The position numbers and the translations under genes were made by a program. Below the pieces are notes generated by a model, which ran no database searches, was not told where the DNA came from, and saw only the letters and a program-made list of their open reading frames with translations. A stretch of DNA of 64,000 bases from Elusimicrobiota bacterium (lineage in GTDB: Bacteria; Elusimicrobiota; Elusimicrobia; UBA1565; UBA9628): contig JANRKA010000041.1 of NCBI GenBank assembly GCA_033875325.1, positions 3,995-67,994 of the forward strand, read 5' to 3'. Shown here in pieces: positions 7,735 through 59,551 of this stretch (position 1 is the stretch's first letter; every line of letters begins with the position of its first letter).

Positions 7735-7740
7735 GGGACG

Positions 7741-11105: not shown

Positions 11106-11114
11106 CCGCGGCGG

Positions 11115-11612
11115 TCAGCGGAAGTTCTTGAACTGGAGCTCGATGCCGTAGCTGCCTTGGCGCAGCAGGTTCATCGTGGCTTGGAGCTCGTCCTTGGACT
11201 TGCTCGACACGCGCAGCTGCTCGTTCTGGAGCTGGGCATTGACCTTGAGCTTGGCGTCCTTGAGGGCGCGCTGCATCTCCTTGGCCTTGTCGGTGGGGAT
11301 GCCGGACTGGATGGCCACCTCCACCTTCGCGGTCGCGCCCAACGCGTGCTCCACCGCGCCCTTGGTGAAGTTCTTGACCGGCAGGCCGCGTTTGGCCAGG
11401 CGGGTGAAGAGGATGTCGATGACCTGGTCGATCTTGAAGTCGTCGGCGGCGCGCACCAGGAGCTTCTTGGCCTTGGCGTCGAGCTCGATGGTCGCGTTGG
11501 CGCCCTTGAGGTCGAAGCGGTTGGCGATCTCCTTCATCGCCGTCTGCACGCCCTCGGAGACGAGGTTCAGGTCCACCTCGCTCACCACGTCGAAAGAGAA
11601 GTCGCTGGCCAT
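11115..11612 (-). CDS. yajQ: YajQ family nucleotide/cyclic di-GMP-binding protein
   Basis: SFDVVSEVD, NRFDLKG, LRVSSKSKDELQ, LQFKNFR. Confidence 0.93.
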   Translation of the reverse strand: MASDFSFDVVSEVDLNLVSEGVQTAMKEIANRFDLKGANATIELDAKAKKLLVRAADDFKIDQVIDILFTRLAKRGLPVKNFTKGAVEHALGATAKVEVAIQSGIPTDKAKEMQRALKDAKLKVNAQLQNEQLRVSSKSKDELQATMNLLRQGSYGIELQFKNFR

Positions 11613-11617
11613 GTCGT

Positions 11618-15987: not shown

Positions 15988-16704
15988 CTAGGAGTAGTAG
16001 ATGACGCGCGCCGCCAGCCCGCAGAGGAGGGCGACGGCCGTGCCGACGTAGAAGGTGAAGCCGGACAGATCGAAGAGGCGGTGCCGGCGCAGGAAGAACA
16101 TCACGCCCAGCCAGGCCGCCGCCAGGAGCGCGGCGCCGCCGACGCTGGGGAAGAGGATGCACAAGGCCAGGACGAGGCGCTCGGCCATGGCGAGGTACTT
16201 CTCGTCGTCTCCCGGATACTGGGAGCCGTAGAGGTCCTTCTCGATGAAGTAGATGAGGACCGTGCACGCGTGCGTCGCCAGCACGAACAGGCAGCCCAGC
16301 ACGGGCCACTTCTCCGGGAAGAAACCCGGGGCGATGGCCGCGCGAGCGGCGATGGGCACGACCAGGAAGATGAAGGCGTAGTGGATGACCTGGTCCCACA
16401 TCAGGAAGGCCGTGTTGTCGGGCATCCCGTAGCGCTTGATGGCGTAGATGCGCCACCAGTCTTCCAGGAAGTGGCTGACGAAGATGACCGCCAGGCAGGT
16501 CCAGCCGGTGAGGCGGACGAAGGGATGGTCCACCCAGTAGTCGCCCAGGAACGGCCAGCACAGGGCCACGTAGAAAAGCGGGTGCATCCCGCAGTGGACC
16601 AGGAGCCCGGCCATGGTCTCCCGCTTCCAGCGGTTGATGTAGTTCGTCTGGAAGGTGAAATCGGCCAACAGATGGCCGAAGGCCAGGCGCCAGAATATGT
16701 CCAT
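15988..16704 (-). CDS. DUF3307-like integral membrane protein
   Basis: Start MDIFWRLAFGHLLADFTFQT at 16704 (TAATG coupling to the cyclase stop); 'HFLED', 'WDQVIH', 'MAER'; many TM segments. Confidence 0.8.
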   Translation of the reverse strand: MDIFWRLAFGHLLADFTFQTNYINRWKRETMAGLLVHCGMHPLFYVALCWPFLGDYWVDHPFVRLTGWTCLAVIFVSHFLEDWWRIYAIKRYGMPDNTAFLMWDQVIHYAFIFLVVPIAARAAIAPGFFPEKWPVLGCLFVLATHACTVLIYFIEKDLYGSQYPGDDEKYLAMAERLVLALCILFPSVGGAALLAAAWLGVMFFLRRHRLFDLSGFTFYVGTAVALLCGLAARVIYYS

Positions 16705-18806
16705 TACTTGGCGGTGAGGTTGAAGACCTGGTCCCAGTCGTCGGGCGGCAGCGCCGCGTAGTCGCGGGCGAGCGTCAGGTAGAGCTCGCCGGGGCCGTCT
16801 TTGGGCATGAGCCGCAGGAACTCCTCGAACGCGGGCAGGGCGTCCTCGTATTTCTTGTCGTAGAAGAGCTTGACCGCCTTCTCCCAGACGGGGAGCGCCT
16901 TGACCCACGCGGGAGCGAGCTTGCCCTTCTCGGCGAGCGGCTCGTAGACCGGCACGGGCGTCTCCTTGCCGACGACGCGGGCCTTGCCGAGGTAGCGCGC
17001 CTCGATGACGTCCTTGGCGCCGAGGTAGGCGGGCTCGGAGGCGATGATCTTCGAGCCGAAGAACTTGTTGGCGCCCTCCAGGCGGGATGCCAGGTTGACC
17101 TCGTCGCCCAGCACGGTGTAGGCCAGCTTGCGCTGGGTGCCCGTGAAGCCGACGTTCATGAGGCCGGTGTTGATGCCGATGCGGATGGCCGGTATCTCGG
17201 GCAGGCCCGGGTCGAGGTCCTTGTTCAGCTCGTCGATGGCGCGCTGGCAGCCGAGCGCGGAGAGGATGGCCTCGCGCGCGTGGTCCTTGTTCTCGGTCGG
17301 CGCGTTCCAGAACGCCATGATGCAGTCGCCGATGTATTTGTCGATGGTGCCGCGGCGCTCCAAGATGACGTCGGAGAGCGCGGAGAGGTACTTGTTGAGG
17401 AACGCGATGAGCGCCTCGGGGCCCATCTTCTCGGAGATGGTGGTGAAGTGGGCGATGTCGAGGAAGAAGACGGTCATCTCGCGCTTCTGCGCGCCGAGCT
17501 TGGCCTTGTCGGGGTCGTTGGCCAGCTCCTCGACGACCTCGGGCGAGACGAACTGCCCGAACATGCTCTTGATCATCTTCTTCTCGGCGCCCTCGGCGCG
17601 CACGCGATGGATGGTCAAGGCGAGGTAGCTCAGCAGCAGGCCCAAGGTCGGCCGCATCACGTCCAGGCGCATGCCGGACTTGAACGCGACGCTGCCCGCC
17701 ACGAACCAGGCGGCGATGACGACGGCGACGGCGACCGCGCCCAGAGCCGGGGACAGCCGCAGCAGCAGCGCCGGCAGGACGGTCAGCAGCGCGACGGCCA
17801 GCGCGATGGCCCAGACCGGCGGCAGGGAGCGGAAGCGGTCGTTGAGGATGTTGTCCACGAGATTGGCGTGGTACTCGACGCCCGGCGCCTGGTGGATGAA
17901 GGGCGTCGCGTAGTGGTCGTAGTAGCCGAGGGCCGTGGAGCCGATGAGGACCATCGAGCCTTTGAGAGCCTCCTTCTCCTCGTCGCTCAGCGTCCCGTCG
18001 AGCACGTCGAGCATGGAGAGGCGCCGGTACGGCGAGTAGACCATCTTGCGCTCGGCCTCCGGCAGCTTGGCCTCGCGCACGGAGTGGCGGGGCCAGTCCA
18101 CGGGTTTGGCGAAGTTCGTGTAGAGGATGGCGGGGCGGCCGCCGGGCGCGAAGCGCTCCTCCAGCTCCCGGGTCGAGAGGCCCGCGAAACTCTTGGCGGC
18201 CGCGATCTCGAGCGCGGGCGCGTGCATGAAGGTCTTGGAAGGGTCGGCGATGCGGTCTTCGAAGAGGCGCGCGCGGCGCAGATGGCCGTCGGAATCGAGC
18301 ACGGAGTCCACGTTCGGGTAGCCGATGCCCTCGGCGGCGGCGGCCAGGGCGGGCAGCGGCTCGTTGACGACGAAGCCGCCCCCCTCGGTGCCGTCGTGCT
18401 CGTACTGGTAGAGGTGGATGACCTTGCCGAAGCGTTTGGTCGCGTCCGCCAGGGCCTTGTCCTGGGCGGGGTCGCGTTTCTCGAAGAAGAGGATGTCGAA
18501 GACCACGGTCTTGACGCCGTAGCCCTTGAGGCGGTCCAACGCCTTGGCGTAGAGGTCGCGCGGCAGCGGGAAACCCTTGCCCTTGCCCGTCTCCTCGTCC
18601 ACGGCCAGGACGATGAGCCGCGGGTCGGCGGGCGGCAACGCGTCCTGGTGCAGCCGGTGCAGGAAGTCCTGCCACACGTCCTCCTGGTGGAAGAACAGCC
18701 CGTTGAGGTTCAAGGTCAGCAGGCGCGGGTAGGTGAACAGGACGAAGAGCGGCGTGAACGCGAGGAGGAAGTAGAGCGGGAAACGGCTCTTGCGCGACTG
18801 GCTCAC
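16704..18806 (-). CDS. CHASE2-domain class III adenylate cyclase with C-terminal TPR-like tail
   Basis: N-terminal TM; CHASE2 motifs 'FPLPRDLYAKALDRL', 'FDILF', 'VLIGSTA', 'PGVEYHA'; three TMs; cyclase FLDIAHFT, DKYIGD, YTVLGDEVNLASRLE. Confidence 0.92.
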   Translation of the reverse strand: MSQSRKSRFPLYFLLAFTPLFVLFTYPRLLTLNLNGLFFHQEDVWQDFLHRLHQDALPPADPRLIVLAVDEETGKGKGFPLPRDLYAKALDRLKGYGVKTVVFDILFFEKRDPAQDKALADATKRFGKVIHLYQYEHDGTEGGGFVVNEPLPALAAAAEGIGYPNVDSVLDSDGHLRRARLFEDRIADPSKTFMHAPALEIAAAKSFAGLSTRELEERFAPGGRPAILYTNFAKPVDWPRHSVREAKLPEAERKMVYSPYRRLSMLDVLDGTLSDEEKEALKGSMVLIGSTALGYYDHYATPFIHQAPGVEYHANLVDNILNDRFRSLPPVWAIALAVALLTVLPALLLRLSPALGAVAVAVVIAAWFVAGSVAFKSGMRLDVMRPTLGLLLSYLALTIHRVRAEGAEKKMIKSMFGQFVSPEVVEELANDPDKAKLGAQKREMTVFFLDIAHFTTISEKMGPEALIAFLNKYLSALSDVILERRGTIDKYIGDCIMAFWNAPTENKDHAREAILSALGCQRAIDELNKDLDPGLPEIPAIRIGINTGLMNVGFTGTQRKLAYTVLGDEVNLASRLEGANKFFGSKIIASEPAYLGAKDVIEARYLGKARVVGKETPVPVYEPLAEKGKLAPAWVKALPVWEKAVKLFYDKKYEDALPAFEEFLRLMPKDGPGELYLTLARDYAALPPDDWDQVFNLTAK

Positions 18807-19897
18807 GGGGTTCTCCGGGCGGCGGGTTTGACGACTGGCTTCGGCGCGGGTTTTGCGGCCGGCTTGGGCGCGGGTTTGACGGCCGGTTTCGGCGCGGGTT
18901 TGGCGGCCGGCTTCGGCGCGGGTTTGACGGCGGGCGCGGGCTTGACGGCGGCGGGCGCAGGTTTGGGCGCTTCGCGCACGCCGAGGCGGGCCAGCAGCTG
19001 CGAGCGCGCGAACTCCATGACGCCGCGCGACGCGCCGTCCTTCTCCGCGGCGAGCGCGGCCTCAAGCGCGGCAAGGCCCTTCTCCTTGTCTCCGACCAGG
19101 GCGACCACGTTGGCGGCCTGCTGGCGCACCGCCGGGTCGGCCGACTTGAGCGACGCGTAGGCCGTCTCCAGGCCGGACGGGTCGCCCAGGCGGGCCAGCG
19201 AGACGGCGGCCTGGAGTCGCGCGCCGGCGTCGGCGTCCTTGAGCGCGGCGGCCAAGGCCGGGCGCGCCGCGGGGTCGCCGCTGAGGCCGAGGGCTCTCAC
19301 CGCTTCGAGGCGCACCCCCCCGTCGGCGTCGGAAAGCGCGGCCTGCAGGGCGGGCACGGCGTCCTTGGAGCCGATCTGTCCCAACGCGGACGCGGCCGCG
19401 CGGCGCAGGTTCGCGTCGGGGTCCTTGAGCGCGGCGCCCAACGGGCCCACGGCCGGCGTGGCGCGCAGCGCCCCGAGCGTGCGCACCGCGGCGTAGCGCA
19501 CGGGCGCGGCGCCGTCGCGCACGGCGCCCATGAGCGCGCCGACCGCGGACGGGTCGCCGATGTAGGCGAGCGCGGTCGCGGCGTTCTGCCGCACGGCCGG
19601 CTCCTTGTCGTTGGAGAGCAGGTCCGCCAGCCGCGGCACTGCCGCGCGCGAGCGCAGGATGCCCAACGCGTCCGCCGCCGTGGCGCGCACGAACGGGTGC
19701 GCGTCGGCCAGCAGCGGCAGCAGCAGGGGCTCGGCAGCGGCGTTGCGCATCTGCCCGAGCTCGTCGGCGCCCTGGCGGCGCACCATCGGGTCGTTGGACT
19801 TCAGCTTCGCCGACGAGACCGTGAACGGGTCGGCCGGAGCGTCGGCGGCGGCGGCAGGCAAAACAAGCGCGAGGACGAGAAGGAGGGCGGTAGGCAC
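18803..19897 (-). CDS. Exported HEAT/PBS-lyase-like repeat protein with Pro/Ala/Lys-rich tail
   Basis: Signal peptide MPTALLLVLALVLPAAAA; about 8 repeats of 'D....VR..AA.ALG'; tail KPAPKPA(A/V); GTGA overlap with the cyclase start. Confidence 0.88.
   Translation of the reverse strand: MPTALLLVLALVLPAAAADAPADPFTVSSAKLKSNDPMVRRQGADELGQMRNAAAEPLLLPLLADAHPFVRATAADALGILRSRAAVPRLADLLSNDKEPAVRQNAATALAYIGDPSAVGALMGAVRDGAAPVRYAAVRTLGALRATPAVGPLGAALKDPDANLRRAAASALGQIGSKDAVPALQAALSDADGGVRLEAVRALGLSGDPAARPALAAALKDADAGARLQAAVSLARLGDPSGLETAYASLKSADPAVRQQAANVVALVGDKEKGLAALEAALAAEKDGASRGVMEFARSQLLARLGVREAPKPAPAAVKPAPAVKPAPKPAAKPAPKPAVKPAPKPAAKPAPKPVVKPAARRTP
18822..18975 (-). repeat. Degenerate 24-nt tandem repeat encoding KPAPKPA(A/V)
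   Basis: ggcgcgggttt(t/g)...gccgg units repeated about 4-5 times at the end of the HEAT gene. Confidence 0.8.
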
Positions 19898-19903
19898 CGC
19901 CGG

Positions 19904-19933
19904 ATTCTATCTTTCCTTATATAAGGGCTTCAA
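19904..19933 (-). promoter_or_regulatory. sigma70-type promoter (TTGAAG-N18-TAGAAT), leaderless, with palindrome CCTTATATAAGG in the spacer
   Basis: TAGAAT 19904-19909 lies 6 nt before GTG 19897; perfect 12-bp palindrome at 19915-19926. Confidence 0.55.
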
Positions 19934-19934
19934 G

Positions 19935-20014
19935 TAAGCTGGGGGACAGGCTCCCAGCTTATCGATAAGCTGGGACCCAGGTGGAAACAAGCTTGGAGCC
20001 TGTCCCCCAGCTTA
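19935..20014. repeat. 80-bp nested inverted-repeat element (REP/MITE-like) at the end of the giant gene
   Basis: Perfect 20-bp terminal IR TAAGCTGGGGGACAGGCTCC (19935-19954 / 19995-20014) and a perfect 24-bp internal palindrome TCCCAGCTTATCGATAAGCTGGGA (19952-19975); includes the giant gene's TAA. Confidence 0.8.
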
Positions 20015-23000
20015 ATGGATGACGCCGATCTTGCGGATGGCGGTGGCGGTGCCGCCGGGGGATTTGACCTTGATGCGGGCGGTGTAGCCGCCCTTGGAGA
20101 CGAAGGCGCCGGCGTCGTTGCGGCCGTCCCACGGGACGAAGTTGGCGCCGGTTTTGCCGCCCTCGGAGCCGGGCGGGCAGGAGATGGTCTTCACCAGGTA
20201 GCCGAGCGCGTCGTAGAGGGTGATGGTCACGTCCGAGTCGGCGTTGAGCGTGTAGGTGATGAAGGTTTTGCCCGCGTTGCCGCCCTTGCGCGAGTCGAAG
20301 GGGTTGGGGTAGTTGCTGACGGCCGAGAGGATGGTGCTGTTGACGCCGGTCACCGCGCTCGCGCTGAGCGGCGACCAGGTGGACGGCACGCCCGCGCCCG
20401 AGATGGCGCGCACGCGATAAGAGAAGAACTGGCCGGCCGGGCGCGGACCCTCGCCGGGGAAGGTCGGGTCGCCGACGCCGTACACGGGCGAACGCGCGGA
20501 GATGACGTTGACCGTGCGCCAGATGACGGTGTCGGACAGGTTCTTCGGGTCGCCGCCGCGCTCCTGCACCTCGTAGGAGGCCACCCCGGAGATGTTCTGA
20601 GTGGACGGCGTCCAACGCACCTGGAAGGAGGTGCGGTTCTGCTCGGTGGGCGTCGCGGCGCCCGGCGTGGTCGGAGCGAACGGGTCCACGCGGTAGACGA
20701 GCATCGGCTGCGCCGGCGACACCGAGCCGCTCGCGGAGACGAACTGGGCGAAAAGGATGGCGGCCTTGTCCGAGACCAGCTCTCCCGCGGTGTGGAGGAT
20801 GGGCGCCGAGCCCAGCAGGCCGCGGCCGTTGTTGGGCGGCGGGTCGCCGGCCTGGGCGACGGTCTCGAGCAGGTTGGGGTTCTGGTCGTTGCGCTTCAGG
20901 CGCATGATCTCCGAGCCGACGTAGATGTAGCCGGGCAGCTCGAGCTTCGAGGAGTCGGCGACGACGAAGAAGGTCGTGTCCTGCGACAGCGTCTGGCTGA
21001 GGCGGGTGACGTTGGGCACCGTCATCTGCAGGCCCTTCATCGTCGCGCCCGTGACGGGGTCTCCCGCCGCGCGCACCGCGAAGTTGCTCACGCTCAGGCC
21101 CGTGACGCCCGTGACCGTCACCGACGACCACTTGTTGGTCAGGCCGATGGGGTCGTCGTAGTTCGTGCCGACGGCGACCAGGTAGTAGCCCGAGGTGCCG
21201 GTCAGCGGCAGGTTGAAGGTCAGCTCGCTGGCGGACTTGGCCCACGCCGACGGCGCCAGGCCCTGGCCGGGGTCGGGCGCGGTGGCGGCGAGGTTGCCCT
21301 GGTTGGCCACGTCCAAGCCGATGCGGAACTGCGGCTTGTTGGAGCCGGGCGAGAACACGATCATGTCCAGGATGCCGTCCTTGTTGATGTCCACGTCCAG
21401 GATGCCGGTGCCGGTCAGGTCGGTCGTGGGCGTGCCGTCGCCCAGCAGCGACACCTGGGTCGGCCGCGTGCTCTCGCCGATGGAGAAGTTGTCGGGGACG
21501 AGGTCGCCGTTGATGTCCACGAGCGGAGCCGCCGACGGGCAGTTCGTCAGCCAGGCCGTGCCGTCGGCGCAGATCCACTTGCTCTGGTCGGGCACGGGGT
21601 TGCCGTTGACGAAGCAGACCTGGTTGCGCGGGTTGCCCGCGTCTTTGCCCGTGGGCACGCAGCCGGGCGAGAGCAGGGCGTACGCCGGGTAACCCACCGC
21701 CACGCCGCTGACGCCGGGCTGCGCGCGCGTCACGATCATCGGCGGCAGGGCCGAGCTGACGACGACGCCGGGCACGGTGAGCGGGGCGATGAGCACGGTC
21801 TTCGACTCGAAGGGCGGCAGCAGGGTCGGGTGCGGCGAGGCCGTGACGGGCGCGCCGTCGGGGCCGATGACGTCGGTGAAGGCCTCCACGCGGAAGCCGA
21901 AGGTGTGCGTCAGGGTCGTGCCGCCCGCGCGGTCGGTGAAGCCCACGTCGGCGGTCAGGAAGACCACGGTGTTGGCCGTGGACACGCGCAGATAGGGCAC
22001 GCCGTTCTGGACGAGGTCCACGAGCGCGTAGCCGTTGGAGAAGGCGCCGCTCGTCGAATGCGCCACCGTGCCGAGCTGGCTGTCGAGCCCGGCGGAGAAC
22101 ACGCCGTCGCCGTTGTCGAGCCAGACGCGCACGCGCGAGGCGTCGCCGTCGCCCGACAGGGCGACGGTGGAGGTCGCGATGGTGCCGATCTGCTTGAAGC
22201 GCATCTTGGCCACGTTGACGAAGTCGGTGCTGGCGCGCATCTCGACGCGCAGCACGGGCACGTTGGTGTCGCCCTGGCCCGCGCCCGACGGCGCGTTGGA
22301 GAAGCCCGACATGGACAACACGATGGGGCTGATGGCGACGTTGCGGCCGACGAACGGGTAGGAGGTCGTGAGCGTGCCCAGCGGCTCGGCGGCCGTGACC
22401 CCGGTCAGCAGCACCGGCGTGGCGTTGTCGCCGCGCGGCAGGCCGATCCAGGACGGGTCGCGCACCGCGACGCCGACGAGGTCGTTGGCGACGGCCGAGT
22501 CGCCGATGTCGAAGGCGACGAAGAACGCCTGCGCCGTCGGGCCGATGAACTGGTCCGTCTTGAGCGTGACGAGCGCCTGCAGGTCCGCGTCGTTGGCCTG
22601 GTTGAACACGTCCACCTTGCGCGCGTTCACGCCCACGGAGTGGTTGAGCACGGGCGTGGCGGCGGTGCCCAGCTGGTCGCCGCGCGAGGTGATGCGCAGG
22701 CAGGGGCGCCCGGAGGCGTCGTCCACGCCCGGCACGGCGGCCGTGGGGCAGCCGGGGCCCGAGAAGGTCATCAGCTCGGCGCCGCCCACCCACAACTTGC
22801 CGCCCAGCGCCGCTCCCGTGTTGTCGAGCGGGAAGCCGACGGTCGAGAGCACGACGAGGTCGAAGGGCGCGACGGTCACGCTCGACACGGCCGTCACGAG
22901 GGTGGTGTCCACCTCGGAGATGTTGACGTCGTTGGCCGTGAGGAAGTTGCTCGAGTCGATGTCCTTGAAGACGCGGATGAACTTCACGTCGGTGTTGCGG

Positions 23001-26000: not shown

Positions 26001-29000
26001 TTGGTCGTGGCGATGATGCCGAAGGGCTTGACCACGCCGTTGCCCGCCAGCGGCACGACGTTGCCGGACTGCAGGGTCATGCCGTGCGTCTGTCCGGCGG
26101 CCGCGCCCGCGTCGAAGTCGTAGACCAGGAAGTAGGTGTTCGTCGAGGTCGTGATGGTGCCGTCGAGCGACAACGGGTTCGTGAGCACGAGATTGGCCGT
26201 GCGCGTGTCGCCCGGCGGGAAGACCGCCTCGGCCACCTGCTTGTCGATGGTGAAGCCGAACTCGCCGTCGCCCGCCGTGCTCGTCTGGGCGGAGTCCGTG
26301 TCGAGGTACAGCCGGATGCGGGTGATGGCCGAGTCCAGGCCGCTGCCCGAGTGCGTGAAGCGGACGCTCGAGATGACGCCGGAGAACGCGTCGGTCCACA
26401 TCTTGAGCTTCAGGACGCCGACGTTGGGCGTGCCCTGGTTGATGTAGTTGTACGACGAGACGGTCAAAGACGGCGGCTGCCACCAGGCGTTGATGTCCTC
26501 GGCCAGGACGTTGATCTGCGCGGGCTCGCGCTCGACCGAGGAGGTCGCCGTGCGCACGGCGAAGTTGTTCGCCGCGATGCCCACGGGCGCGCCGGGCGCG
26601 AGCGTGAGGTTGGACGGGCCGACCAACTCCAGGCCGAAGGACTTCGGCAGGTCCTGCCCGGGCGCGAAGACGGAATAGGCGGCCGAGGAGACGCGCGCGG
26701 TCACGAAGAAGAACTTGTCCTGGGAGCCGTTGAGCGTGACCTCGCCGCCCGGGAAGGCCGCGTCGAGGAAGGTCTGGCCGAACAGCGCCGAGCCGAAGAA
26801 CCACGAGCCCGCGCCGTTGTAGGCGCCCGACGCCAGGAACACGTCCGTCAGCGGGTCGAAGCGGCCGTTGGGCGAGTTCGGGTCGTCGCGGTAGAGGCCG
26901 AGCTCCGTGATGTAGGTGTTGGCCAAGGTGCCCTCGACGCGGCTCTGCACGCGCATGGAGCGCAGGTCCGCGGTGTAGGGCGCGCCCGTGGGCGAGATGC
27001 GCAGGTTCAGGCGCAGCATGGCGATGGGGTCCGGAGAGGCCCCGGTGTTGCCGTCGCCCTGGTTCAAAGTGCGCTTGGTGACGCCCAAGGCGACCTTCAG
27101 CGGCGGGATGGGGCCGTTGGGCGGCGGCGTGGACTCGGGCGCCACGTCGGCGGGCGTGACGACCACGCCGGCGAGGACCACGTCGCCGTCCGAGCGCAGC
27201 GCGGGATTGGCCGGCAGGCCCGAGCGCGCGCCGTCGTTGGTGTGGCCGTACACGGAGGAGTTCGTCGTGTCGGTGGCGCGGATGTTCAAGTTCTCGACGA
27301 TCTGGTCCACCACGCCGAAGTTGGTGAACACGCCGCCCTCGCCCGGCGTGAACGCGTGGTAGGTGTTGCCGCTGATGAGGTCCACCAGCGTGACCGTGGC
27401 CGTCGAGCCCGAGGAGCCGAAGTTCACCAGGCCGGTGTAGTAGTTGCCGTTCTGGGCGTCGCCCGACGCGGGGTTGCCGAACAGGTCGCGCGCGCGGATG
27501 GTCAACACGCCGGGCACGCCGACCTGGAGAGGGTTGGCCGCGGTGTAGGGGTGGTTGACGGTGAGGTAGGTCGCGCGGCCGGGAGTGATCTGATGGACCT
27601 GCGCCGTGGAGGCGAACACGGGGGTGCCGCCCAGGTAGGCCTGGGCCATCACCGTGGTGCCGCCGGCGAGCGTGTCCCAGAAGTACATCGGCGCCTGCGA
27701 CACGCCCGCGCCGCCGGGGATGATGACGTCGAGCTGGCTGGTGAAGATGTTGGTCCAGAAGGCCGACGGCGCGGTCGCGACGATGACCGCGGTCGGGTCG
27801 ATGCCGGCGTAGACCGTGTCGCGCACGCTGGTGTAGCGGATGATGTAGGTCGAGCCCGAGGAGGTGACGTTGCCGTACTGGTCGAGGAGCTGGGCCGCGA
27901 CCACGGTGTTGGTCGGCACGCCGACCTCGATCTGGATGGTCGTGCCGGCGACGAGGCGGCGCGGCTGCGTGGCCCAGCCGATCTGCGAGGGCGGCCCGGG
28001 GATGACCGAGTAGCTGGCGTAGCCCACGGCCCAGGTCGGGTAGGTGACGCCCAGCGCGGCGAGCGTGTGCGTCGAGCCCGGCGCGGTCAGCAAGGTGTCG
28101 ATCATGTAGAAGGTCGCCGTCGAGCGGTTGACCGGCAGGTAGGCCACGGCCGTCGAGCTGACGAAGGCGCCCGCCGCCGGCGTCGAGAACTGCACGAGGC
28201 CGGCGGAGTCCGTGACGAGCTTGAGCTGGACCGAGCCCAGGCCCAGGTCCTGGCCGGGCAGCAGCGGGGAGGCGTTGCCGTAGTAGTCGCGCGACTCGAC
28301 CACCATGAGCGACGAGGTCGTGCCCGCGAGCAAGGTCTGCCCCGCGCCCACCGAGAAGGCCAGGCGGTCGATGGTGTCGGGCGCGATGAACACGCGCTGC
28401 TGCGCCGAGAACAGGCCCGGGGAGGTGATCTCCAGGACGGGCAAGGTCCCGCCGGAGAGGTCGTAGTTGTTCGACGCCGTCGTGTCGAGGTAATAGAAGG
28501 TCGCGTAGTACTGCCCGAGCGGGATGTCCACCGTCGTGGTCGATGCCAGGAACGCGGGCGGGCTCACGCGCGAGCCCTGGGTGGAGTCGCTCGAGCGCGA
28601 GAAGCCGACGTAGTCGTTGAGCCGCGACGCCGCGCGCGTCTGCGTCGCGAGCGTGACGACGTAGTTCTGCGTGGAGACCACCGGGTTGGAGAACAGGTCC
28701 TGCAGCTGGACCGTGAACCGGGCCAGGGTGGAGCCGAAGTCCACGACGCGGCCGGCGACCTCGGTGCGCTCGGGATTGGCGAAGCCGACCTTCTTGGGCG
28801 CGTCCGGGTCCATGCGCAGCGCGTGCGTCAGGGCCAAGGTCGGGCCGGGCAGGTAGAGCTGGACGGTCCACGAACCGGGCCGCCCCCCCTCGGCGGTGTT
28901 CGACGACGGGCCGGGGCCGGAGTAGGAGGTCATGCGGCTGTGGAAGCGGAAAGGCGTCTCGGCGCCCGTCTGCCCGTCGGCGATGTTGATCGAGTTGATG

Positions 29001-32000: not shown

Positions 32001-35000
32001 ATGACGTCGATGTCGGAGACCGTGGAGGTGGAGAGCTTCGGGAACAGGACGTCGTCGTCCACGGCCTCGATGACGAGGTTGCCCGTCGCGGCGCTGGGCA
32101 GGACCGCGGTGAACGGCGCCTGGCCGAGCGCGAGGTTCTGCGGCGCGTCCGTGGTCGCGTACGCGTCGTTGGTCAGCAGACGCACCTGGCGGCCGTCCAC
32201 GGCGCGGTTGTTGTAGAGGTCCACCGCGCGCACGGTGACGGTGTAGGTCTGACCCGCGGTGAGCGTGGAGAGCGCGCCGCTCTTGCCCGTGACCGTGCCT
32301 TCGACGAAGGACTCGCCGGGCGCGGTCGCCAGCAGCCCGATGGGCGTGTTGGCCTGGACCGGGATGGAGACGACGGTGTCGGTCGCGTAGGCCGTGCCCG
32401 TGGCCAAGGTGTCCGAGGCGCGCAGCTGCAGCCCCGCCTGGCGCGTGACGGGCGGGAAGGAGAAGGTCGTCGTGCCCGCCACCAAGGTGCGCTGGTACGG
32501 GTTGGGCGCGAGCGCGCGGCCCTGGATGTTGGCGTCGTTGAGGAAGTCCAGGCGCACCAGCGGCATGACGACGTCGGCGGTCAAGGGGATGAACGGCGTG
32601 GTGCCGGCGACCACGTTGAAGAAGGAGTCGGTCACGTTGACGCGGATGGTGGTGGTGACGCCGGCGGTCAAAGTCGCCGGCGCCGCGCCCGTGCGGCCGC
32701 CGCTCGTCGGGTTGGAATCGAACGGCGCCCGGCCCGGCGCCGCGACCTGGCCCTCGACGAGCAGCTGCAGCTTGGCGGGCGTGGACCACCACACGCGGAA
32801 CGGGTCGGGCGTGTAGTAGGTCGAGGTCACCGCGGGCAGCACCGCCGCCTGCACCTGCACGCTGTGGGTGCCGGCCACGACCGGGTGGAAGGCGAACACC
32901 GTGGTGCCCAGCGCCAAAGTCTGCGTGTAGGACGAGCTGTGCTGGTCGGGGAACAGGTTGGCGCGCACGGCGAAGGCGACGGAGACGTCCGGGTTGTAGA
33001 AGGGGTCCACGGCGTAGACGGTCACGGGGTAGGTCGAGCCGGCGAAGGTCTCCTGCGGCGCGCCGGTCTTGCCGAAAGGCGCGACCGAGAACTTGCCGGG
33101 GACCTGGGTCTCGCCGGGCAGCAGCGCGATGAGGCGGTCGGCGGACTGGCCGTTGACGGTCACCGCGCTCGCCGGATTGGAGGCGTTGGGGAAGATGCCC
33201 GAGCCCGTGGACTGCACGACCTGGGCGCCCGCCGTGACGAAGGCCCAGTCGAAGGTCGTCGAGCCGGTGAACACCACGGCGCGGTCGTTGCCGGGCGCGA
33301 AGGCGCCGTTGTTGGGGTCGGTGTCGGTGACGAACACCGAGGTCGTCGAGTCCAGGAACAAGTTGTAGAAGTCGTCGGTCACCTGCACGCAGTACTTGAT
33401 GGTCTGGCCCGCGACGAACGCGCGCGCCGCGCCCAGGCGGCCCTCGGAGCCCGGGGTCACCACGCCGGGGCCCGGGCGCTGGCCGGGGCCGCCCGTGCAG
33501 GTGGAGTCCGCGTCCGCGATGAGCTGGACGCGGGTCGCGGGGCCGCGGTGCGTCGTGTAGTTGAGCGTGCCGAACAACGCGGGGTTGTCCGTCTGCTGGA
33601 CGCGCAAGGTGCGGGCGCCCGCCTTGCGCATGCGGATGGTGAAGGTGTGGGCGCCGTTGTCGCCGCCGAGGCCCGTGGTGAAGGTGTAGGTCGAGGGCAG
33701 GCCGTGCAGGCTGTCGGAGACGGCGTCGTCGTCCATGCTCTCGGGGCCGCCCGAGCCGTCCACCATCGCGAAGTTGACCTGGCCGCTGTAGCTCGACGCC
33801 ACGCCGCCCGCGCCGCCCGGCCCGTCGCGCGCGGTGACCGTGATCTGCACGTCGTTGCCCACGGTGTGCGGGTTGGACGAGACGACGATGGAGAAGCTTT
33901 GCGCGATGCCCGAGATGAAGAAACGCGGGCCCGAGGCGATGACGCTCTGCAGGTTGCCGGCGTTGTCGCGCACGCGCGACCAGGTGATGTAGGGGTCGCC
34001 GCGCACCCAGCAGGGGACGCCCAGCGGGTTGGGCGCCGGGCAGGCCAGGTTCGGGTACTGCCAGTTGCCGAAGTTGTCCTGGAAAGACGCCGCGATCCAC
34101 GGCGGGCTGGCCACGAGCGGGGCCGCCGCCGTCCAGGTGGAGCCGTCCCAGAAGTAGCCGGTGTCGTCCCAACCGCCGAAGAGGATGGGGCCGCCGGTGA
34201 CCAGCGGCGCGGTGTCGCGGAAGACCATGAGCTCGGGCGCGGCCTGGTGCCAACCCAAGGTCGGCGCGACGCCGGAGCCCGTGCCGTTGATGCCGGAGGT
34301 GAAGCCCGGGTCCGAGGAGTTGCCCAGGACGACCTTGGTGTCGTCGTAGGTCGTCAAGTTGGAGGGGTTGGTGACGCTCGAGACCGGCTCGGCCGTCTCG
34401 AAGAGGAAACGCGCCGCGCCGGCGGCGGTCTGGTTGTTGCCGACCGAGTCGGTCGCCGACGAACGCACGACGTAGTGGCGCGAGGGCGTGTAGGCCAACG
34501 CGCCGTTGGTGAAGGTCCACGAGGTCGGGAAGAGATTGGCCGGCAGCACGGGCAGCCACACCTGCGGGCCGACGGCGAAAACCGTGCCGTCGAACCAGCG
34601 GTTGGTCTCCTCCTCGTAGATGGACACGGCGACGGCGGACACCGTGCTGTCCGCGTCGGTGGAGGTGCCCGAGAGCGTGGTGAGGCTGTTGTAGGCCGAG
34701 TCGGGGATGGGCGCGGTCGGGCCGGAGGTCGGCGGCGCGTTGTCGAAGCGGAAGGTCCGCGTGGACAGGCTCGTCTGCTGGTTGCCCGACGCGTCCACGG
34801 CCAAGGTCGTGATGAAGAAGGTCTTGCCGTTGAAGGTGTCGTGCGTGCCCTCGCGCCACGCGAAGTTCAGCGTGCCGGGGTTGGCGAAGTCGGGGTTCTG
34901 CGCGGAATCGTAGGCCCAGGGGTTGCTCGTGCCGAACGGCCCGGCGGCGCCCGCGACGGAGTAGAAATCGTTGGGGTTGCCGGCGCTCCAGTGCGGCGCG

Positions 35001-50000: not shown

Positions 50001-53000
50001 AGGCCCTGACGGTAGACGTGCACGTACACGGTGTTGACGCGCCCGCCGAAGAGTCCGGTGCCCAGGTCGGAGGCCGTGCCCGTGAGCGTGGCGAGAGCGT
50101 TGACGAAGGAGCCGTTGGCCGGCGCGGTGAACGACGCGGTCGGGCGCTCGACGTCGAAGAACACGGGCGTGGGCGGCGCGCCGGCGCCCGCCACGCCCGG
50201 GGAGGGCTGGCCGGTCTCGTTGCTCGCGAAGTCGCGGATGCGCGAGCTGAGCTCGTAGCGGATGCCGTTGGTCCAACTCACGCCCGAGCTGTTGTAGCTC
50301 CACAGGCCGTCCGAGGGGCTGTCGCCGAGCAGGAACCACACGACGCTGCCCGAGGGGTTGAACTGGTTGGCGGGACCCGCCACGCCGTTGGGGTCCCAAT
50401 AGAGGGAAGTGCCCTCGCGACGGATGAAGATCTCCGCCTGGTTGGGCAGGCCGGGCACCGCGTCGGACGCCGTTCCCGAGATCGTGTTGATGGAGGTCAC
50501 GGCCGTGCCGCTGGAGGGCACGGAGACGTTGCCCAGAGGCGCGGTCACGTCCCAGGTGACGGTGCGCGGCGTGCCTTCGGCCTGGTTGCCCACCGAGTCG
50601 CGCGCGCGGGGGATGAGCTGGTAGTCGCGGCCGTCCACGAGGCCGATGGTGAGCGGCACCGTGTAGGACCAGGGCGAACCCTGGACCGTGGTCGGCGTGT
50701 AGGTCGCGAAGGCCACCCAGGCGTCGGTGAAGCTCGAGTACCAGCGGCACGAGCCGTCGGGCGTGCCGCCGGCGCAGGACCCGCCCGCGCTGCTGGCGAT
50801 GGCCACCTCGGTCAACGAAAGCGAGGAGAAGTCGGAAGCCGTGCCCTGGATGGTGACGAGCTGGTTGATCTGGCTCTGGTTGGGCACGGTCACGGCCGAG
50901 AGCGGGTTGACCGCGTCCACGCTGAAGGTGACCGAGTTGACGCCCACCGCGAACAGGTTCTCCACGTTGGCGAGCTTCGTCACGCTGCCGCAGTCGGTGT
51001 CGGCGGTGTTGCCGCCGTTGTCGCAGGCGCGGCTGTAGAGGACGTAGGAGATGCCCGAGTCGCCCACGGAGAACGCCGGGCTGGTGAAGGTCCAGGAGCT
51101 GGGGTGCAGGGACGCGTCGGGCCAGTTGGCGGGTTGGGCGCCCCAAGCCGCGCCGCCCAGCCAGAACAGGCCGTCGGACTGGCGCTGGATCTGGTACTCG
51201 ACGCGGTTGACGCCGCTGTGTTTGTCGTAATAGCCGCCGTGGAACACCGTGGCCCCGGGCCCCAGCGTGCTCAGGTGCGTCGGCGAGGCGATGGCGTTGG
51301 TGGGCTTGACCACGTCCCAGTAGAAAGTATGCGAGCTCACCAGCGGCCCGTTGAAGTCGAACTCGTGCGGGAACAACGCGTTGGCCGCGTCGCGCGCGCG
51401 GTCGCGCGCGGTGACGCGCACGCTGAAGGAGGAGCCGCTGATCTCGTCGTCCGTCCATGGCACGGGCCCGCCGGTGGCGTTGGCGGCCCAGTCCACGTCG
51501 TTGAAGCTCAGGCTCCAGCCCTGCGAGAAGGTCTCCGCCGGGTCGGCGAAGGTGGTGTTGCCGTCGCGCGTGTCCAGCGCGTTGATGGCGGTCGCCACAG
51601 CGCCCCAGCTCGCGCCGTTCCAATACAGGTGGTCCTTGTGGCGGTAGATGCGCAGTCGCACGCCCTCGAGGAAGCCGTTGCTGTTGTCGGTCGCCGTGCC
51701 CAGGATGGAGGTCAGGGTCGTGCGCGTGGAAAGGCCCACCGGCGTGGTCACGCCGGCGGTGGGCGTGGTGTTGTCCACGCGGAAGACGCGGTCGGTCGAG
51801 GCCAAGGTGTAGTTGCCGGCCGCGTCCTGCGCGAGCGCCGACAGCGTGATGCGCGCGTTGTTGAACACCGTCGAGGCGAACGGATAGGTCCACGCGTTGC
51901 CGCCCGTGGCGTTGATCCAGAACGGGCAGCCCTGGTCGAAGGCGGCGCCGCCCCAGCAGTTGTTGGGCCCGAGGTCGCGAAGCGACACGGAGCTGACCCT
52001 CACGGGGAAGTCGTCCGTCGAGAGACCGCTGACCTGGTTGAAGCCCCGGAACACGCCCTCCGTGACGCCCGGGAAGCCGATGCTCACCACCGGAGTGGTC
52101 TCGTCCACCACGAAGGCGTTGGTGGTGCCGCTCACGCGCCAGTTCGCGGCCCTGTCGGCGACCTGCAGCGAGAAGTAATAGGTGGCGCCGTCGGTCCACG
52201 CTGACGACGGGAAGGTCGAGCGCCAGATGCCGGTGCCCGGGTTCCAGCAGGTCAGGCCGCAGGCGACGGTGGAGAAGTTCACCACGGACCCGCCCCAGGT
52301 CTCCGTCCCCCGGTTCCAATACTCGGTGGTACCGGAGATGATGCGGCGCAGCTGGAACTGAAGACTCTCGACTTGTCCCGGTGAGATGTCGCCGGCGGTT
52401 CCGGAGAGCGTGGCCAGTTGGAAGCCGCGATAATAGCCGTCGAACGTCGCGGCGTTGAGGTTCTTGGGGTGCTGGATGACGCCCGTGGGGTTCTGCGTGT
52501 CGAAAACGAAGTCCACCTGGGTAGGAGTGCCCTGAACGTTGCCCGCGTTGTCCACGGCGCGCACGCGCAGACGGTAATCGCGCGTCGTGGTCCAGATGCC
52601 CCCGACGCCGGCTATCTGCCAAGGGTTGGCGCCGGTCGCCGTGTTCCACACCTGTCCCGCCTGCCAGCCCGTGCCCACTCTGTAGTACTGCAGGTTGGAG
52701 AGGTCCTGTATCTCGACCTCCACGCGGGCGGTCTCGGACACGTTGTTGCCCGTCCCGTCGGTCGCGGTGCCGGTCAGCGTGCTCAGCGAGGAGTAGTGGC
52801 GTCCATCGAGCGGAGCCTCGACCACGGCCGTGGGCGCCGTGAAGTCACGCGTGTAGGCCAGCCCGAAGACGCCGCCGGCGTGCTGGTTCGTGTTCCAGGT
52901 CCAACCGGTGTAAAGCGTGGGTTGATAGGCGGCGTCGAAGCTCGCCCCGTTCCAGCGATAGACGCGGATGTGGCGGTTGGCGTTGGTGACGGCCACGAGC

Positions 53001-55612: not shown

Positions 55613-55615
55613 GGC

Positions 55616-56278
55616 TTAGCGCCTCCCCCGCCGCCCGGCGGCGGCGCGCGCGGCGCGGTCGGCGCGTGTGGCCTTGGCGGCCGCGGACACCGAGGCGTCC
55701 TTGTCCCCGGCCAAACGCTCGAGCGCCTTGTCGGCGGCGGCGCCGGGGTGGCGCAGCAGGGCGCGCGCGGCGTGGCGGCGCACGCCCGGGTCCGCCTGCT
55801 CGGCCGCTGCGGCGAGGGCGACGGCGGCCTCGGTGGAGCGGGAGACCCCCAGCGAGGAGGCGGCGGCCCGGCGCACGTCCAAGTCGGCGTCCCCGGCCAA
55901 GGCGGCGATGAGGGCCCGGGCGGCGGCGCGGTCGTCGAGGCGGCCGAGCTCCTGTGCCGCGGCGACCCGCACGATGGGGGCGGTGTCGGAGCGCAGGGCC
56001 CGGGTCAAGGTCGGGAGCGCCGCGACGGGGTCGGCCGCGGCCAAGGCGCGCAGGAGCTCGTAGCGCACCTGGGGGTTGGACTCCATCGCGGCGGCGGCGT
56101 CGAGGTCCGCGGCGGAGGGAGCGCCGCGGCCGCGGCGCACGGCCAACTCGGCGGCCTCGCGGCGCTCCGCGGCGGTGCGGCCCCGCAGGTTCGCCTTGGC
56201 GCGGGCCGGGCGAGCGGGCTCCGCGGCCCAGACGGACGCGCACGCGCACGCCACACAGAACGCCGCCAGGGGCAGCAT
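55616..56278 (-). CDS. Exported HEAT-repeat protein
   Basis: Signal-like MLPLAAFCVACACASVWAAE (start could be at 56335); repeats 'VR.AAA..LG'; stop lies 3 nt before the giant gene start. Confidence 0.82.
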   Translation of the reverse strand: MLPLAAFCVACACASVWAAEPARPARAKANLRGRTAAERREAAELAVRRGRGAPSAADLDAAAAMESNPQVRYELLRALAAADPVAALPTLTRALRSDTAPIVRVAAAQELGRLDDRAAARALIAALAGDADLDVRRAAASSLGVSRSTEAAVALAAAAEQADPGVRRHAARALLRHPGAAADKALERLAGDKDASVSAAAKATRADRAARAAAGRRGRR

Positions 56279-56463
56279 TCTATATCGCGCGCGCGTAATG
56301 GAAGAAGAAGACGCAGTACGCCCGTAAAGGTTCATTCGAAGCCTTTAAGCTTAACGGGTCGTAAGTTCGGCCGGGTTACGGAAGTATGACCGGGACCGGG
56401 CCGCCGCAACGGATCGCTTTCAGCATGCCTCCAGGACGGAGGCAGGGGGGGTTGGAGAACGCC

Positions 56464-56949
56464 TTAACAGCGCAGGACTTCAGGACAACAACGACCGGCT
56501 TTCAAAGGGGCGGCCGCGGGGCGGGCATGGACGACGACCGCGGAGACCGACAGCAGGGCCACCACGGCCAACAGCAGCGCCGCGACCTTGGGCCGCGGGC
56601 CGGGCATGGCGACGGCTGCCAAAACGCGGGGCAGGCCGGCGGCGAGGCCGCGGAGGTTCGAGGCCGCGCGCTGCAGGACCTCGAGGGCCGACAGAAGGGC
56701 CGCGGCGTGCGCGAGCTTGGAGGCGAAGGCGTTGGCGGCGGCGCGGGCGGCGGAGGCCTGCTTGAGCTCGCCCAGGACTTTTTCGCCTGAAACCGGGCGG
56801 CCCAGCTCGTCGCGGATATCGAGGCCCCAGCGGTTGTCCACGGCGGCCATCGGGTTCACGCCCCGCGCGTCGAGACCGACCGTGGTCTCGGCGGCCGCCG
56901 GGCCCGCGAGGAACGCGAGCGCCAGGGCCAAAAAGAGGCCCGGCCCCAC
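56464..56949 (-). CDS. Small exported/membrane hypothetical protein ending CCPEVLRC
   Basis: GTG 56949 with AGAGGGG upstream (alternative ATG 57018); signal peptide LFLALALAFLAGPAAA; C-terminal TM VAALLLAVVALLSVSAVVV. Confidence 0.62.
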   Translation of the reverse strand: MGPGLFLALALAFLAGPAAAETTVGLDARGVNPMAAVDNRWGLDIRDELGRPVSGEKVLGELKQASAARAAANAFASKLAHAAALLSALEVLQRAASNLRGLAAGLPRVLAAVAMPGPRPKVAALLLAVVALLSVSAVVVHARPAAAPLKAGRCCPEVLRC

Positions 56950-57023
56950 CGGCCATCGTACCCCTCTATCCCGACGATGGCAGGTTAGGACCGGGCGAAA
57001 ACGGAGATATCCATTCATCGTTG

Positions 57024-57106
57024 TTTTCGGTAGCCAGGCGATCTCGGGCTTCCGAGACCCTTCGCTTTGCGCCCCGCTCTCGCGAACGGTTTGCCGGTTT
57101 GTCGCT
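57024..57106 (-). ncRNA. Cyclic di-GMP-I (GEMM) riboswitch
   Basis: Minus strand GGCAAACCGTTC-GCGA-GAGCGGGGCGCAAAGC...GGGTCT...GCCTGGCTACCGAA matches the class I consensus: GGCAAAC, P2 with GNRA loop, CGCAAAG, TACCGA. Confidence 0.9.
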
Positions 57107-57124
57107 CCAACGCGCGTCAACCCC

Positions 57125-57152
57125 AGTATACCCCCGAACGCCGATTTGTCAA
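57125..57152 (-). promoter_or_regulatory. sigma70 promoter TTGACA-N16-TATACT driving the riboswitch leader
   Basis: -35 at 57147-57152, -10 at 57125-57130, about 20 nt before the aptamer. Confidence 0.8.
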
Positions 57153-57271
57153 GACCCAGGGCCTTGACATGACCAGCTTCCGTCGCCTTCTTCATCGTCA
57201 GAGTCTGCATGAACGCAACAGGCCGAAACAGCCGCCGAACGGGCCGGGCGTCGGGCGCCGCACTATACAAT

Positions 57272-57300
57272 AAAAAAGCCCGCCCCGAAGGGCGGGCTTT
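57272..57300 (-). terminator. Rho-independent terminator after purA
   Basis: AAAGCCCGCCC-TTCG-GGGCGGGC-TTTTTT on the minus strand, 13 nt after the purA stop. Confidence 0.9.
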
Positions 57301-57313
57301 CTCTCTCGTCCGC

Positions 57314-59551
<2,238 letters not shown>

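Follow-up and report, generated by a model that had tools for sequence, protein, structure and literature searches.

What does a riboswitch control when it stands at the head of a 36-kb gene, and with which other proteins would the product of such a gene work? The case treated here lies in a 64,000-nucleotide stretch of DNA (hereafter the window), part of contig C41 of a metagenome-assembled genome of an Elusimicrobiota bacterium (3.63 Mb in 204 contigs, 91.8% complete). On the minus strand of the window, to which all the parts discussed belong, an aptamer for cyclic di-guanosine monophosphate (c-di-GMP) of class I precedes genes for a small exported protein, a HEAT-repeat protein and a giant of 11,866 amino acids (aa) with immunoglobulin (Ig)-like repeats, after which come a second HEAT-repeat protein, a CHASE2 adenylate cyclase and a DUF3307 membrane protein. 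The first-pass annotation, which had placed these six co-oriented genes correctly, read them as a single system in which c-di-GMP gates the production of a giant surface protein. Comparisons with 41 close relatives, with 101 genomes of the order (its families labelled f1, f2 and f3, f1 being the family with the cyclase beside the giant) and with 401 genomes sampled across the phylum suggest another arrangement. We consider it probable, at roughly 60%, that the window holds one half of a two-locus, c-di-GMP-responsive surface system of Elusimicrobiota that is coupled to a motor and repressed by c-di-GMP.

The riboswitch leader and the giant gene

The leader of the first locus begins with a sigma-70-type promoter, TTGACA-16-TATACT (57152-57125), located, as first proposed, right after the terminator of the adenylosuccinate synthetase gene purA (~57300-57271, read from the sequence). 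It has 11 of 12 matches to the consensus, with 0.0 such sites expected in shuffles, it is kept in the leaders of relatives, and no second promoter-like site was found between 55400 and 57400. The -35 box lies within an inverted repeat, GTCAAG-N9-CTTGAC or CTTGACAAATCAAG (57140-57180, minus strand, and the leaders of relatives), which is kept in many relatives, genomes without the giant included, and looks like an operator for a transcription factor acting on the same promoter. The GEMM aptamer (57105-57026) was recovered by the Rfam covariance model for c-di-GMP-I (RF01051) with 59.4 bits against a gathering threshold of 35 and an E value of 4.3e-09. The match spans the full model (positions 1-87) without truncation, and this is the sole Rfam family matched across the whole window. 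The sequence contains the consensus blocks GGCAAAC, GCAAAG and CCGAA; the nucleotides that contact the ligand in this class are, we presume, G20, A47 and C92 of Vc2.

The first-pass annotation had seen no U-tailed terminator between the riboswitch and the giant gene. This did not stand, as a 22-bp G+C-rich hairpin followed by a U-tract lies 30 nt past the aptamer (expression platform, 56996-56928; hairpin at ~56996-56938, then CUCUUUUU), with a nearly invariant loop, GGGAUAGAGGGGU. Searches with blastn matched 49 of the 101 genomes of the order, of which 48 have a single copy and the other (G089) has a second, weak and partial match; in at least 25 genomes of the order the hairpin is located at most ~45 nt downstream of an aptamer on the same strand (coordinates compared by eye). 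In an alignment of 33 sequences with 22 proposed pairs, 96.3% of the cells were standard-paired and seven pairs had changed on both sides, a covariation that none of 500 shuffles reached on any of five measures, with only 29-54% of the cells paired in the slid controls. Hairpin and U-tract are thus likely, from fold and covariation, to constitute an intrinsic terminator. The closing helix of the aptamer, P1, was analyzed in 22 full leaders out of 27 aptamer-bearing ones (26 relatives and the window), those of G042, G041, G026, G030 and G066 being omitted for long insertions. All six of its pairs have double changes and 66.7% of the cells are paired; none of 500 shuffles and no slid control attained its covariation score.

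Two observations concern the hairpin outside this context. In genomes devoid of the giant and of c-di-GMP-I aptamers, promoter, hairpin and U-tract are still found together, as ~100 nt between purA and cyclase (L029 1300-1440 in G013, L047 575-715 in G095, L172, L178, L179 and L180), and they may there serve as purA terminator or encode a small RNA. Moreover, a function of the loop as Shine-Dalgarno sequence of the small open reading frame was rejected as the sole reason for its conservation, as the loop is kept where no reading frame follows and as there are reading frames that start after the U-tract.

The small exported protein (57018-56464) carries a signal peptide, the motif LD(I/V)RD..(G/N)RPVS, a C-terminal hydrophobic helix and a ...VLRC end, and no family of Pfam or NCBIfam matched it. 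Its start codon could be ATG 57018, GTG 56949 or TTG 56931, the uncertainty arising because the terminator hairpin falls inside the reading frame if the ATG is used; a 158-aa frame from an ATG (56480-56956) was rejected as the gene, being off-frame and rich in Arg, Pro and Gly. Aligned by eye, the family displays the block GLEAQGVDPWAAL...LD(V/I)RD..NRPVS, a late hydrophobic helix and a C-terminal LRC, the latter in 17 of 26 sequences, three sequences having been picked in the wrong frame and two containing masked residues. In distant loci without a detectable aptamer, the HEAT gene is preceded by a reading frame of 167-200 aa whose last residues are LILRC or LPLRC. In most relatives the hydrophobic helix is followed by the ...VLRC end (56464-56490 in the window), a cysteine motif conserved at the C-terminus that is possibly a sorting or modification signal.

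A gap of 128 nt separates the small protein from the first exported HEAT-repeat protein, HEAT1 (56335-55616; HEAT_2, 70.4 bits), and the junction of the latter with the giant measures 3 nt, as first reported. Homologues of HEAT1 were found by tblastn upstream of the giant in G009, G006, G035 and G028, and HEAT_2 exceeded the Pfam cut-off in all ten distant reading frames tested immediately upstream of the giant (ten of 15 loci; L158, L159, L162, L169 and L170 were omitted for want of a clear candidate). Both HEAT proteins had been proposed as partners of the giant. For HEAT1 this is well supported by its adjacency and by the far-reaching conservation of the gene order; for HEAT2, a neighbour of the giant in one family only, it was not supported.

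The open frame of the giant (55612-20012) was confirmed. Its Pfam matches are limited to weak Ig-like ones (Big_3_3, Big_13 and Big_3_2) and a C-terminal FlgD_ig domain (32.7 bits, cut-off 27) that starts with NYPNPF. In self-comparison, a signal peptide and a head (~aa 35-890) are followed by ~6,200 aa of divergent Ig-like repeats (~900-7150), by a second repeat type (~7200-8350) and by ~3,500 aa with little repetition. The NCBIfam type IX models align solely with the last ~100 aa and stay far under their cut-offs (21.4 vs 420 and 18.1 vs 600 bits). Across the phylum, conservation is highest in the last 1,000 aa, with 31-89% identity. A sequence search of the Protein Data Bank with aa 1-4000 and 8001-11866 yielded nothing at E values up to 0.01. 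The head, modelled from an alignment of 22 sequences, is all-beta with regular four-strand repeats (mean predicted local distance difference test score 82.9, predicted template modelling score 0.81), and the Foldseek matches of the model are tandem beta-propeller proteins, the best being a two-propeller GH74 enzyme with a TM-score of 0.42, at sequence identities of only 8-12%. The model hence makes it likely that the head belongs to the tandem beta-propeller fold class and is a binding head, which is not to assign it a function.

Head homologues (aa 1-900) occur in seven of the 41 close relatives and, with a six-sequence profile, the head domain was found in 80 of the 401 genomes across the phylum, the longest of the open frames that carry it measuring 19,358 aa. 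Aptamers stand upstream on the same strand in G009, G035 and G028, the three relatives in which the upstream sequence extends to 1.5 kb or more. In a three-contig assembly, the orthologue closest to the giant (G009:C1:1932738-1968340; 82-90% identity) is broken up into open frames of 1,628 and 6,024 aa, a split that could come from sequencing errors or from real breaks. One distant locus (L161, in G376) has two c-di-GMP-I aptamers (481-554 and 1532-1610) upstream of one giant gene, ~330 nt and ~1.4 kb from it, with a HEAT gene between them.

The riboswitch might govern the small reading frame or a short leader RNA only, with the giant transcribed independently and its link to the aptamer a by-product of gene order near purA. 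The ~100-nt unit of promoter and hairpin that survives in giant-less genomes, and which could be a small RNA, would fit such an arrangement, as would the 128-nt gap before HEAT1. Nevertheless, in G351 and G376 aptamer and terminator lie 250-330 nt upstream of the giant head with no gene between, and therefore the giant is the regulated target there; the association of aptamer and giant holds in lineages with 39-66% G+C and differing flanking genes; the window has the single promoter-like site mentioned above; and aptamers and giant are lost together in the order. Control of the small reading frame or leader RNA alone is thus very improbable. As judged from these comparisons of sequence, the conserved unit is that of aptamer, terminator, small exported protein with its VLRC end, HEAT protein and giant, and it recurs across Elusimicrobiota.

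The second locus and its co-occurrence with the giant

The genes that follow the giant were counted at 79 loci found by its C-terminus. The cyclase is the downstream neighbour in 28 of them, and in a different 28 the giant is followed by a six-gene cluster encoding a PorV-family barrel, a FliG-like protein and a MotAB pair; contig breaks or other neighbours account for the remaining 23. An orthologous six-gene cluster lies on contig C127 of the window's genome, behind an aptamer of its own; in other families the cluster comes right after the giant. It encodes a PorV/PorQ-family barrel with TPR repeats (PorV_fam NF033709, 100.5 bits vs a cut-off of 90), a FliG-like protein of 673 aa with TPR repeats (FliG_C 89.1 bits, FliG_M 34 bits), a Pro-rich coiled-coil protein of 722 aa, MotA (MotA_ExbB, 94.1 bits), MotB (MotB_plug 44.4 bits and OmpA 64.1 bits) and a lipoprotein of 242 aa. 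With the NCBIfam equivalog models for MotA, MotB and FliG, the C127 proteins stay below the cut-offs in all three cases. Hydrophobic segments at residues 3-21 and 213-231 of the FliG-like protein suggest a periplasmic domain of ~190 aa joined to a cytoplasmic FliG part.

The aptamer of C127, the second of the genome, scores 65.1 bits, and the ATG of the cluster comes 7 nt after it. An aptamer was located between the stop codon of the giant and the PorV-like gene in all six loci scanned, with the start codon 2-7 nt later, and in five relatives (G027, G025, G030, G039 and G036) the whole series of giant and cluster stands on single contigs. These arrangements suggest that the working partners of the giant are the barrel and the flagellar-type motor cluster encoded elsewhere in the genome, and not the neighbouring cyclase genes. 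A third c-di-GMP-I-like match (G000:C82:12161-12252, L003), with 33 bits vs the threshold of 35, lies directly upstream of a gene for an exported protein of 284 aa.

The distribution of the parts across the order points in the same direction. The aptamer was found in 85 of the 101 genomes, the FliG-like gene in 81 and the giant C-terminus in 66, aptamer and giant C-terminus together in 65. Sixteen genomes had no detectable aptamer; 15 of them also yielded no giant C-terminus and all 16 miss the FliG-like gene. Two of these 16 (G055 and G096) are less than 80% complete and ten are over 90%, and at least six genera are affected by the losses. Because the genomes are related and many of them fragmented, these counts describe the distribution and do not test it statistically. 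A general loss of c-di-GMP signalling in giant-less genomes was rejected: GGDEF domains were found in five of five such genomes (3-6 matches each), as in five of five giant-bearing genomes tested (6-8 matches each).

Within the 91.8%-complete genome the C127 cluster does not appear to be part of a flagellum, because neither FlhA nor flagellin was found in it: the FlhA family (FHIPEP) gave 0 matches there and matched in four control genomes, and for flagellin a Flagellin_N match of 20.6 bits, below the cut-off, was obtained in a frame with two stop codons. The genome contains three FliG_C-domain genes. The two further ones (G000:C183, match 34541-34858, and G000:C17:171-482) may belong to paralogous systems; that on C183 lies ~8 kb from a frame of 6,149 aa (ending near 26610) with the same C-terminal domain as the giant.

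That C-terminal domain is not restricted to the giant. FlgD_ig is present at the C-terminus in nine other genes of the genome, among them frames of 6,149, 5,466 and 3,252 aa, and a PorV_fam gene stands immediately downstream in seven of the nine; altogether, 15 PorV/PorQ-family barrel genes score above the cut-off. The pairing of a cargo with a barrel thus appears to be a general rule in this organism. Pairs of FlgD_ig gene and barrel are located on G000 contigs C160, C137, C49, C71, C113, C55 and C100. As to the translocon, a 1,914-aa SprA-like frame (G000:C111:16727-19627) has three collinear weak matches to TIGR04189 (66, 49 and 41 bits vs a cut-off of 200) and may be a distant one; SprA_N had no match in the genome, and the control genomes likewise had none.

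Several of the results speak against a linked pair of loci with a type IX-like barrel partner. In the window's own genome the two loci are on different contigs, so that their link relies on synteny in relatives and on presence and absence in related, non-independent genomes. In 20 genomes of the order the aptamer was found and the giant C-terminus was not, possibly on account of assembly breaks; one genome (G015) has the giant without aptamer or FliG-like gene, and four (G068, G076, G086 and G046) have aptamers and no FliG-like match. An aptamer precedes the giant in only seven of 16 distant loci with a full-length head, one of which has only 786 nt of upstream sequence. The best family match of the second aptamer is the c-di-GMP-I-GGC variant, for which the literature examined establishes no ligand. 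Finally, in the 91.8%-complete genome no type IX translocon was found over cut-off, and of the PorU sortase only a part resembling the C-terminal domain was matched.

From the parts of both loci, whose order and conservation are observed, we infer a mechanism in which docking, periplasmic role and motor drive would be as follows. The first locus, with promoter, c-di-GMP-I aptamer, terminator, small VLRC protein, HEAT protein and giant, would provide a surface protein composed of a propeller head, a long Ig-like stalk and a FlgD_ig-type sorting domain at the C-terminus. The giant would be exported by Sec, and its C-terminal domain would then dock on the cognate PorV-family barrel in the manner of type IX cargo, while HEAT and small proteins, to judge by the adjacency of their genes, would escort or anchor it in the periplasm. 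The second locus, with its aptamer, TPR-bearing PorV/PorQ barrel, inner-membrane FliG-like protein, coiled-coil protein, MotA, MotB and lipoprotein, would supply the drive, the MotAB stator acting on the FliG-like protein and energising either the secretion of the giant or surface movement; this step is proposed because of the domain content and because no flagellar export gate or flagellin was found. A more daring version, which we put forward tentatively and with less than even confidence, is that of an undescribed non-flagellar rotary apparatus, gliding-like or of a secretion type, in which MotAB pushes a membrane-fused FliG domain coupled through the periplasm to a PorV barrel that holds a propeller-headed filament of 1-2 megadaltons (MDa), both loci being shut off by c-di-GMP through the two riboswitches.

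The direction of control

The earlier idea that c-di-GMP gates the production of the giant stood in one respect, the aptamer being real and leading the small protein, HEAT1 and the giant; the sign of the control is probably the opposite one. In the leaders, the 3' tail of the aptamer, CCGAAGA, is followed by CUGG or GUAGC and pairs in partial folds with the top of the 5' arm of the hairpin, CUAGCUAUCUUCGG, a pairing that recurs when leaders are folded only as far as the hairpin loop. For each of the seven core pairs of CCGAAGA with UCUUCGG, between 17 and 22 of the 22 leaders have complementary bases, and in f3 the tail-arm pairing overlaps with the P1 3' strand (GUAGC) itself. Because aptamer tail and P1 3' strand are complementary to the terminator 5' arm, we rather favour an OFF switch for riboswitch 1, in which both elements would be shared with an antiterminator. 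At low c-di-GMP the tail of the aptamer would pair with the top of the terminator 5' arm and transcription would read through; with c-di-GMP bound, P1 would close, the terminator would form and the operon would be off. The second riboswitch would likewise occlude its adjacent start codon.

Some features of the leader do not favour such an antiterminator. Its pairs are invariant, so that covariation neither supports nor refutes them, and the shuffle control was non-significant (46/500 and 74/500). The UCUUCGG element is kept also in leaders that lost the aptamer, and therefore it must be conserved for another or a further reason. In the window the antiterminator uses a different register, the spacer ACGAUG pairing with CAUCGU, and none was seen in the leader of G064. 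Among the sequencing runs listed for 52000-57400 of the window there were three of DNA, with small shares of the sampled words, and none of RNA.

The same components could work as an ON switch, in which termination is the default, c-di-GMP prevents it and the giant is an adhesin of the sessile state. The terminator is strong, self-contained and persists without the aptamer, so that default termination is conceivable, the proposed antiterminator is devoid of covariation support, and c-di-GMP usually favours adhesion, according to the portions available of PMC6366702 and PMC4933901. However, no element was seen in the leader that would let a closed P1 block the hairpin, since the terminator starts ~30 nt beyond P1; aptamer tail and P1 3' strand are complementary to the terminator 5' arm, with the GUAGC overlap in f3; and the second aptamer abuts its start codon, which is the usual OFF layout. 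Activation by c-di-GMP is on balance unlikely. Were both switches OFF switches, as we favour, c-di-GMP would shut the system down, a response that would be more in keeping with a device for the motile or exploratory state than with an adhesin of biofilms.

The neighbouring cyclase genes and related systems

The genes that flank the giant on its other side are HEAT2 (19897-18803; HEAT_2, 166.1 bits), also an exported HEAT-repeat protein, the CHASE2 class III adenylate cyclase (18806-16704; CHASE2 139 bits, Guanylate_cyc 71.7 bits) and the DUF3307 membrane protein (16704-15988; 43.7 bits). The GTGA overlap of HEAT2 with the cyclase and the TAATG overlap of the cyclase with DUF3307 are both as first described. 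A thiolase gene (15974-14829, Pfam), beyond the boundary first drawn, begins with an ATG 13 nt after DUF3307 on the same strand, so that the row of tight junctions runs on and tight spacing therefore does not mark the end of the system. At the other end, purA (58600-57314; Adenylsucc_synt, 564 bits) is the upstream neighbour and lies outside the system.

Between giant and HEAT2, a stretch of 141 nt folds as a whole at -71.1 kcal/mol and holds a perfect 17-bp inverted repeat (20009-19943) directly 3' of the giant stop codon, which may be a terminator or a stabilising hairpin. Perfect hairpins of 17-32 bp stand right after the giant stop in several genomes (window 19943-20009; L050, L051 and L072) and are unrelated to one another in sequence. 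A promoter-like TTGAAG-18-TAGAAT (19933-19904) ends 6 nt before the GTG of HEAT2. Most of the 15 intergenic regions examined carry the pattern CTTGA(A/T)...TAGAAT, with 6-7 nt between it and the start codon of HEAT2 or the cyclase, and it precedes cyclase or HEAT2 in giant-less genomes as well; the short distance to the start codon suggests leaderless mRNAs in this lineage.

A full-length orthologue of the cyclase is present in 98 of the 101 genomes of the order. At 30 cyclase loci, DUF3307 follows in 29, the remaining locus being a contig end, and the giant C-terminus is within the 1.5-kb flank in 20. In four genomes (G013, G017, G077 and G099) the cyclase stands directly behind purA, promoter and hairpin; in G094 the gene that lies upstream of purA in the window stands ahead of promoter and cyclase, and in G095 a short HEAT2-like gene is placed between hairpin and cyclase. 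No aptamer or giant was found at the cyclase loci of these six genomes. In G055 and G071 purA is a few kb from the cyclase. Cyclase, DUF3307 and thiolase are on contigs other than that of the giant in f2, and the cyclase is alone in f3; HEAT2 stands beside the cyclase in f1, and was not found there in f2 or f3. The cyclase combines a CHASE2 sensor, transmembrane segments (325-362) and the catalytic domain. The latter has CyaB as its closest solved chain (3r5g, E value 1.8e-34), and its FFLDI, DKYIGDC and YTVLGDEVNLASR align with FFSDI, DKFVGDC and YTIIGREVNLASR of CyaB, motifs that we take to be the metal-binding Asp residues and the Lys/Thr substrate pair. Since the cyclase is closest to CyaB and shares its motifs, cyclic AMP is its likely product, and the earlier proposal of that product is reasonable.

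The six genes could still form one operon and one system, with a giant adhesin activated by c-di-GMP and chaperoned by both HEAT proteins, and with cyclase and DUF3307 as reporters of the state of the envelope. Co-orientation and tight junctions speak for it, as do the order giant C-terminus-HEAT2-cyclase-DUF3307, kept in most of f1 (the 20 of 30 cyclase loci mentioned), the 28 of 79 giant loci with the cyclase downstream, and the c-di-GMP riboswitch-activated adhesins known in Bacillus thuringiensis from the available text of PMC4933901. However, a conserved promoter and a hairpin intervene between giant and HEAT2, six giant-less loci keep the cyclase, which is more widespread than the giant and unlinked to it in f2 and f3, the spacing of the thiolase is just as tight as that within the six genes, and the anatomy of the leader favours an OFF switch. 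A single six-gene system is hence quite improbable, if not to the degree of a riboswitch confined to its leader. Of the order HEAT-giant-HEAT-CHASE2-DUF3307, the junction of HEAT1 and giant recurs, and a single family has HEAT2, cyclase and DUF3307 next to the giant. By gene order, HEAT2, cyclase, DUF3307 and thiolase are a separate unit with its own promoter and a bystander to the giant, which a rearrangement in one family would have put beside it. The tight gene spacing misled the first reading.

The two-locus system can be compared with systems already described. Surface proteins under c-di-GMP riboswitches are known (PMC4933901, PMC7423583, PMC6200980), and so are huge proteins of Elusimicrobiota (PMC11573180), as far as the available text of these papers goes; the conserved module of two riboswitches and two loci may be new. 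In Bacillus thuringiensis the c-di-GMP-I riboswitch Bc2 lies upstream of the collagen adhesion protein gene cap, and another upstream of cbpA (PMC4933901, PMC7423583, available portions). The likeness consists in a class I aptamer in the 5' leader of a large surface-protein gene and in the use of transcription termination; in the portions at hand the B. thuringiensis targets are single sortase-type Gram-positive adhesins turned on by c-di-GMP. Here, in contrast, the organism is diderm, the targets are a small protein, a HEAT protein and a 1.2-MDa protein, a second aptamer leads a motor and barrel cluster, and the switch is predicted to be OFF. The riboswitch regulon of Clostridioides difficile comprises flagella, the adhesin CD2831 and pili (PMC6200980, PMC6447587, PMC6366702, available portions) and is similar in that several aptamers per genome coordinate motility and surface-protein genes; the organism, the aptamer classes and the targets are different, and the parts of those papers available describe no giant and no PorV/FliG-like/MotAB module. 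Elusimicrobiota are enriched in uncharacterised proteins of more than 5,000-10,000 aa (bioRxiv 10.1101/2023.11.21.568195; PMC11573180). In the text available of both papers, supplements aside, this family, its HEAT and small partners, the PorV/FliG-like/MotAB cluster and the riboswitch are not mentioned, and the word "riboswitch" has 0 occurrences in the former. In type IX secretion, cargo pairs with a cognate partner of the PorP/PorV family, according to the portions available of PMC9143113 and PMC12618676. The system of the window would resemble type IX secretion or gliding in its huge repetitive surface protein with a putative C-terminal beta-sandwich sorting domain, in the position of the gene beside a PorV/PorP barrel, and in the membership of an ion-driven motor of the MotA/ExbB superfamily. 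It differs in the phylum, in that SprA and PorU were not found over cut-offs in the genome, and in the motor, where a true MotA/MotB pair and a membrane protein with FliG domains take the place of the GldL/GldM of type IX.

SprB of Flavobacterium, a gliding adhesin, is likewise a very large repetitive surface protein, and a motor-driven movement of the giant over the surface would recall the gliding based on SprB. We know of no riboswitch control of type IX secretion. In the literature searched, supplements aside, no link was found between Elusimicrobiota and c-di-GMP riboswitches, a survey of MotAB homologues mentions the phylum 0 times, and no published description of the cluster was found, in agreement with the first-pass annotation, which did not recognise its combination as a described system.

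With these parts, one family of huge Elusimicrobiota proteins, that of the 36-kb gene, gains defined components, namely two periplasmic partners, a barrel, a MotAB/FliG-like set and two riboswitches, and a gene of unassigned function becomes a testable machine. The leader, in which aptamer, P1 and terminator are each backed by many sequences, is compact enough for riboswitch biochemistry. Moreover, the C127 cluster suggests that torque coupling between FliG and MotA is used outside the flagellum, and the FlgD_ig genes with their barrels suggest that Bacteroidota are not alone in matching a PorV-family barrel to a C-terminal sorting domain.

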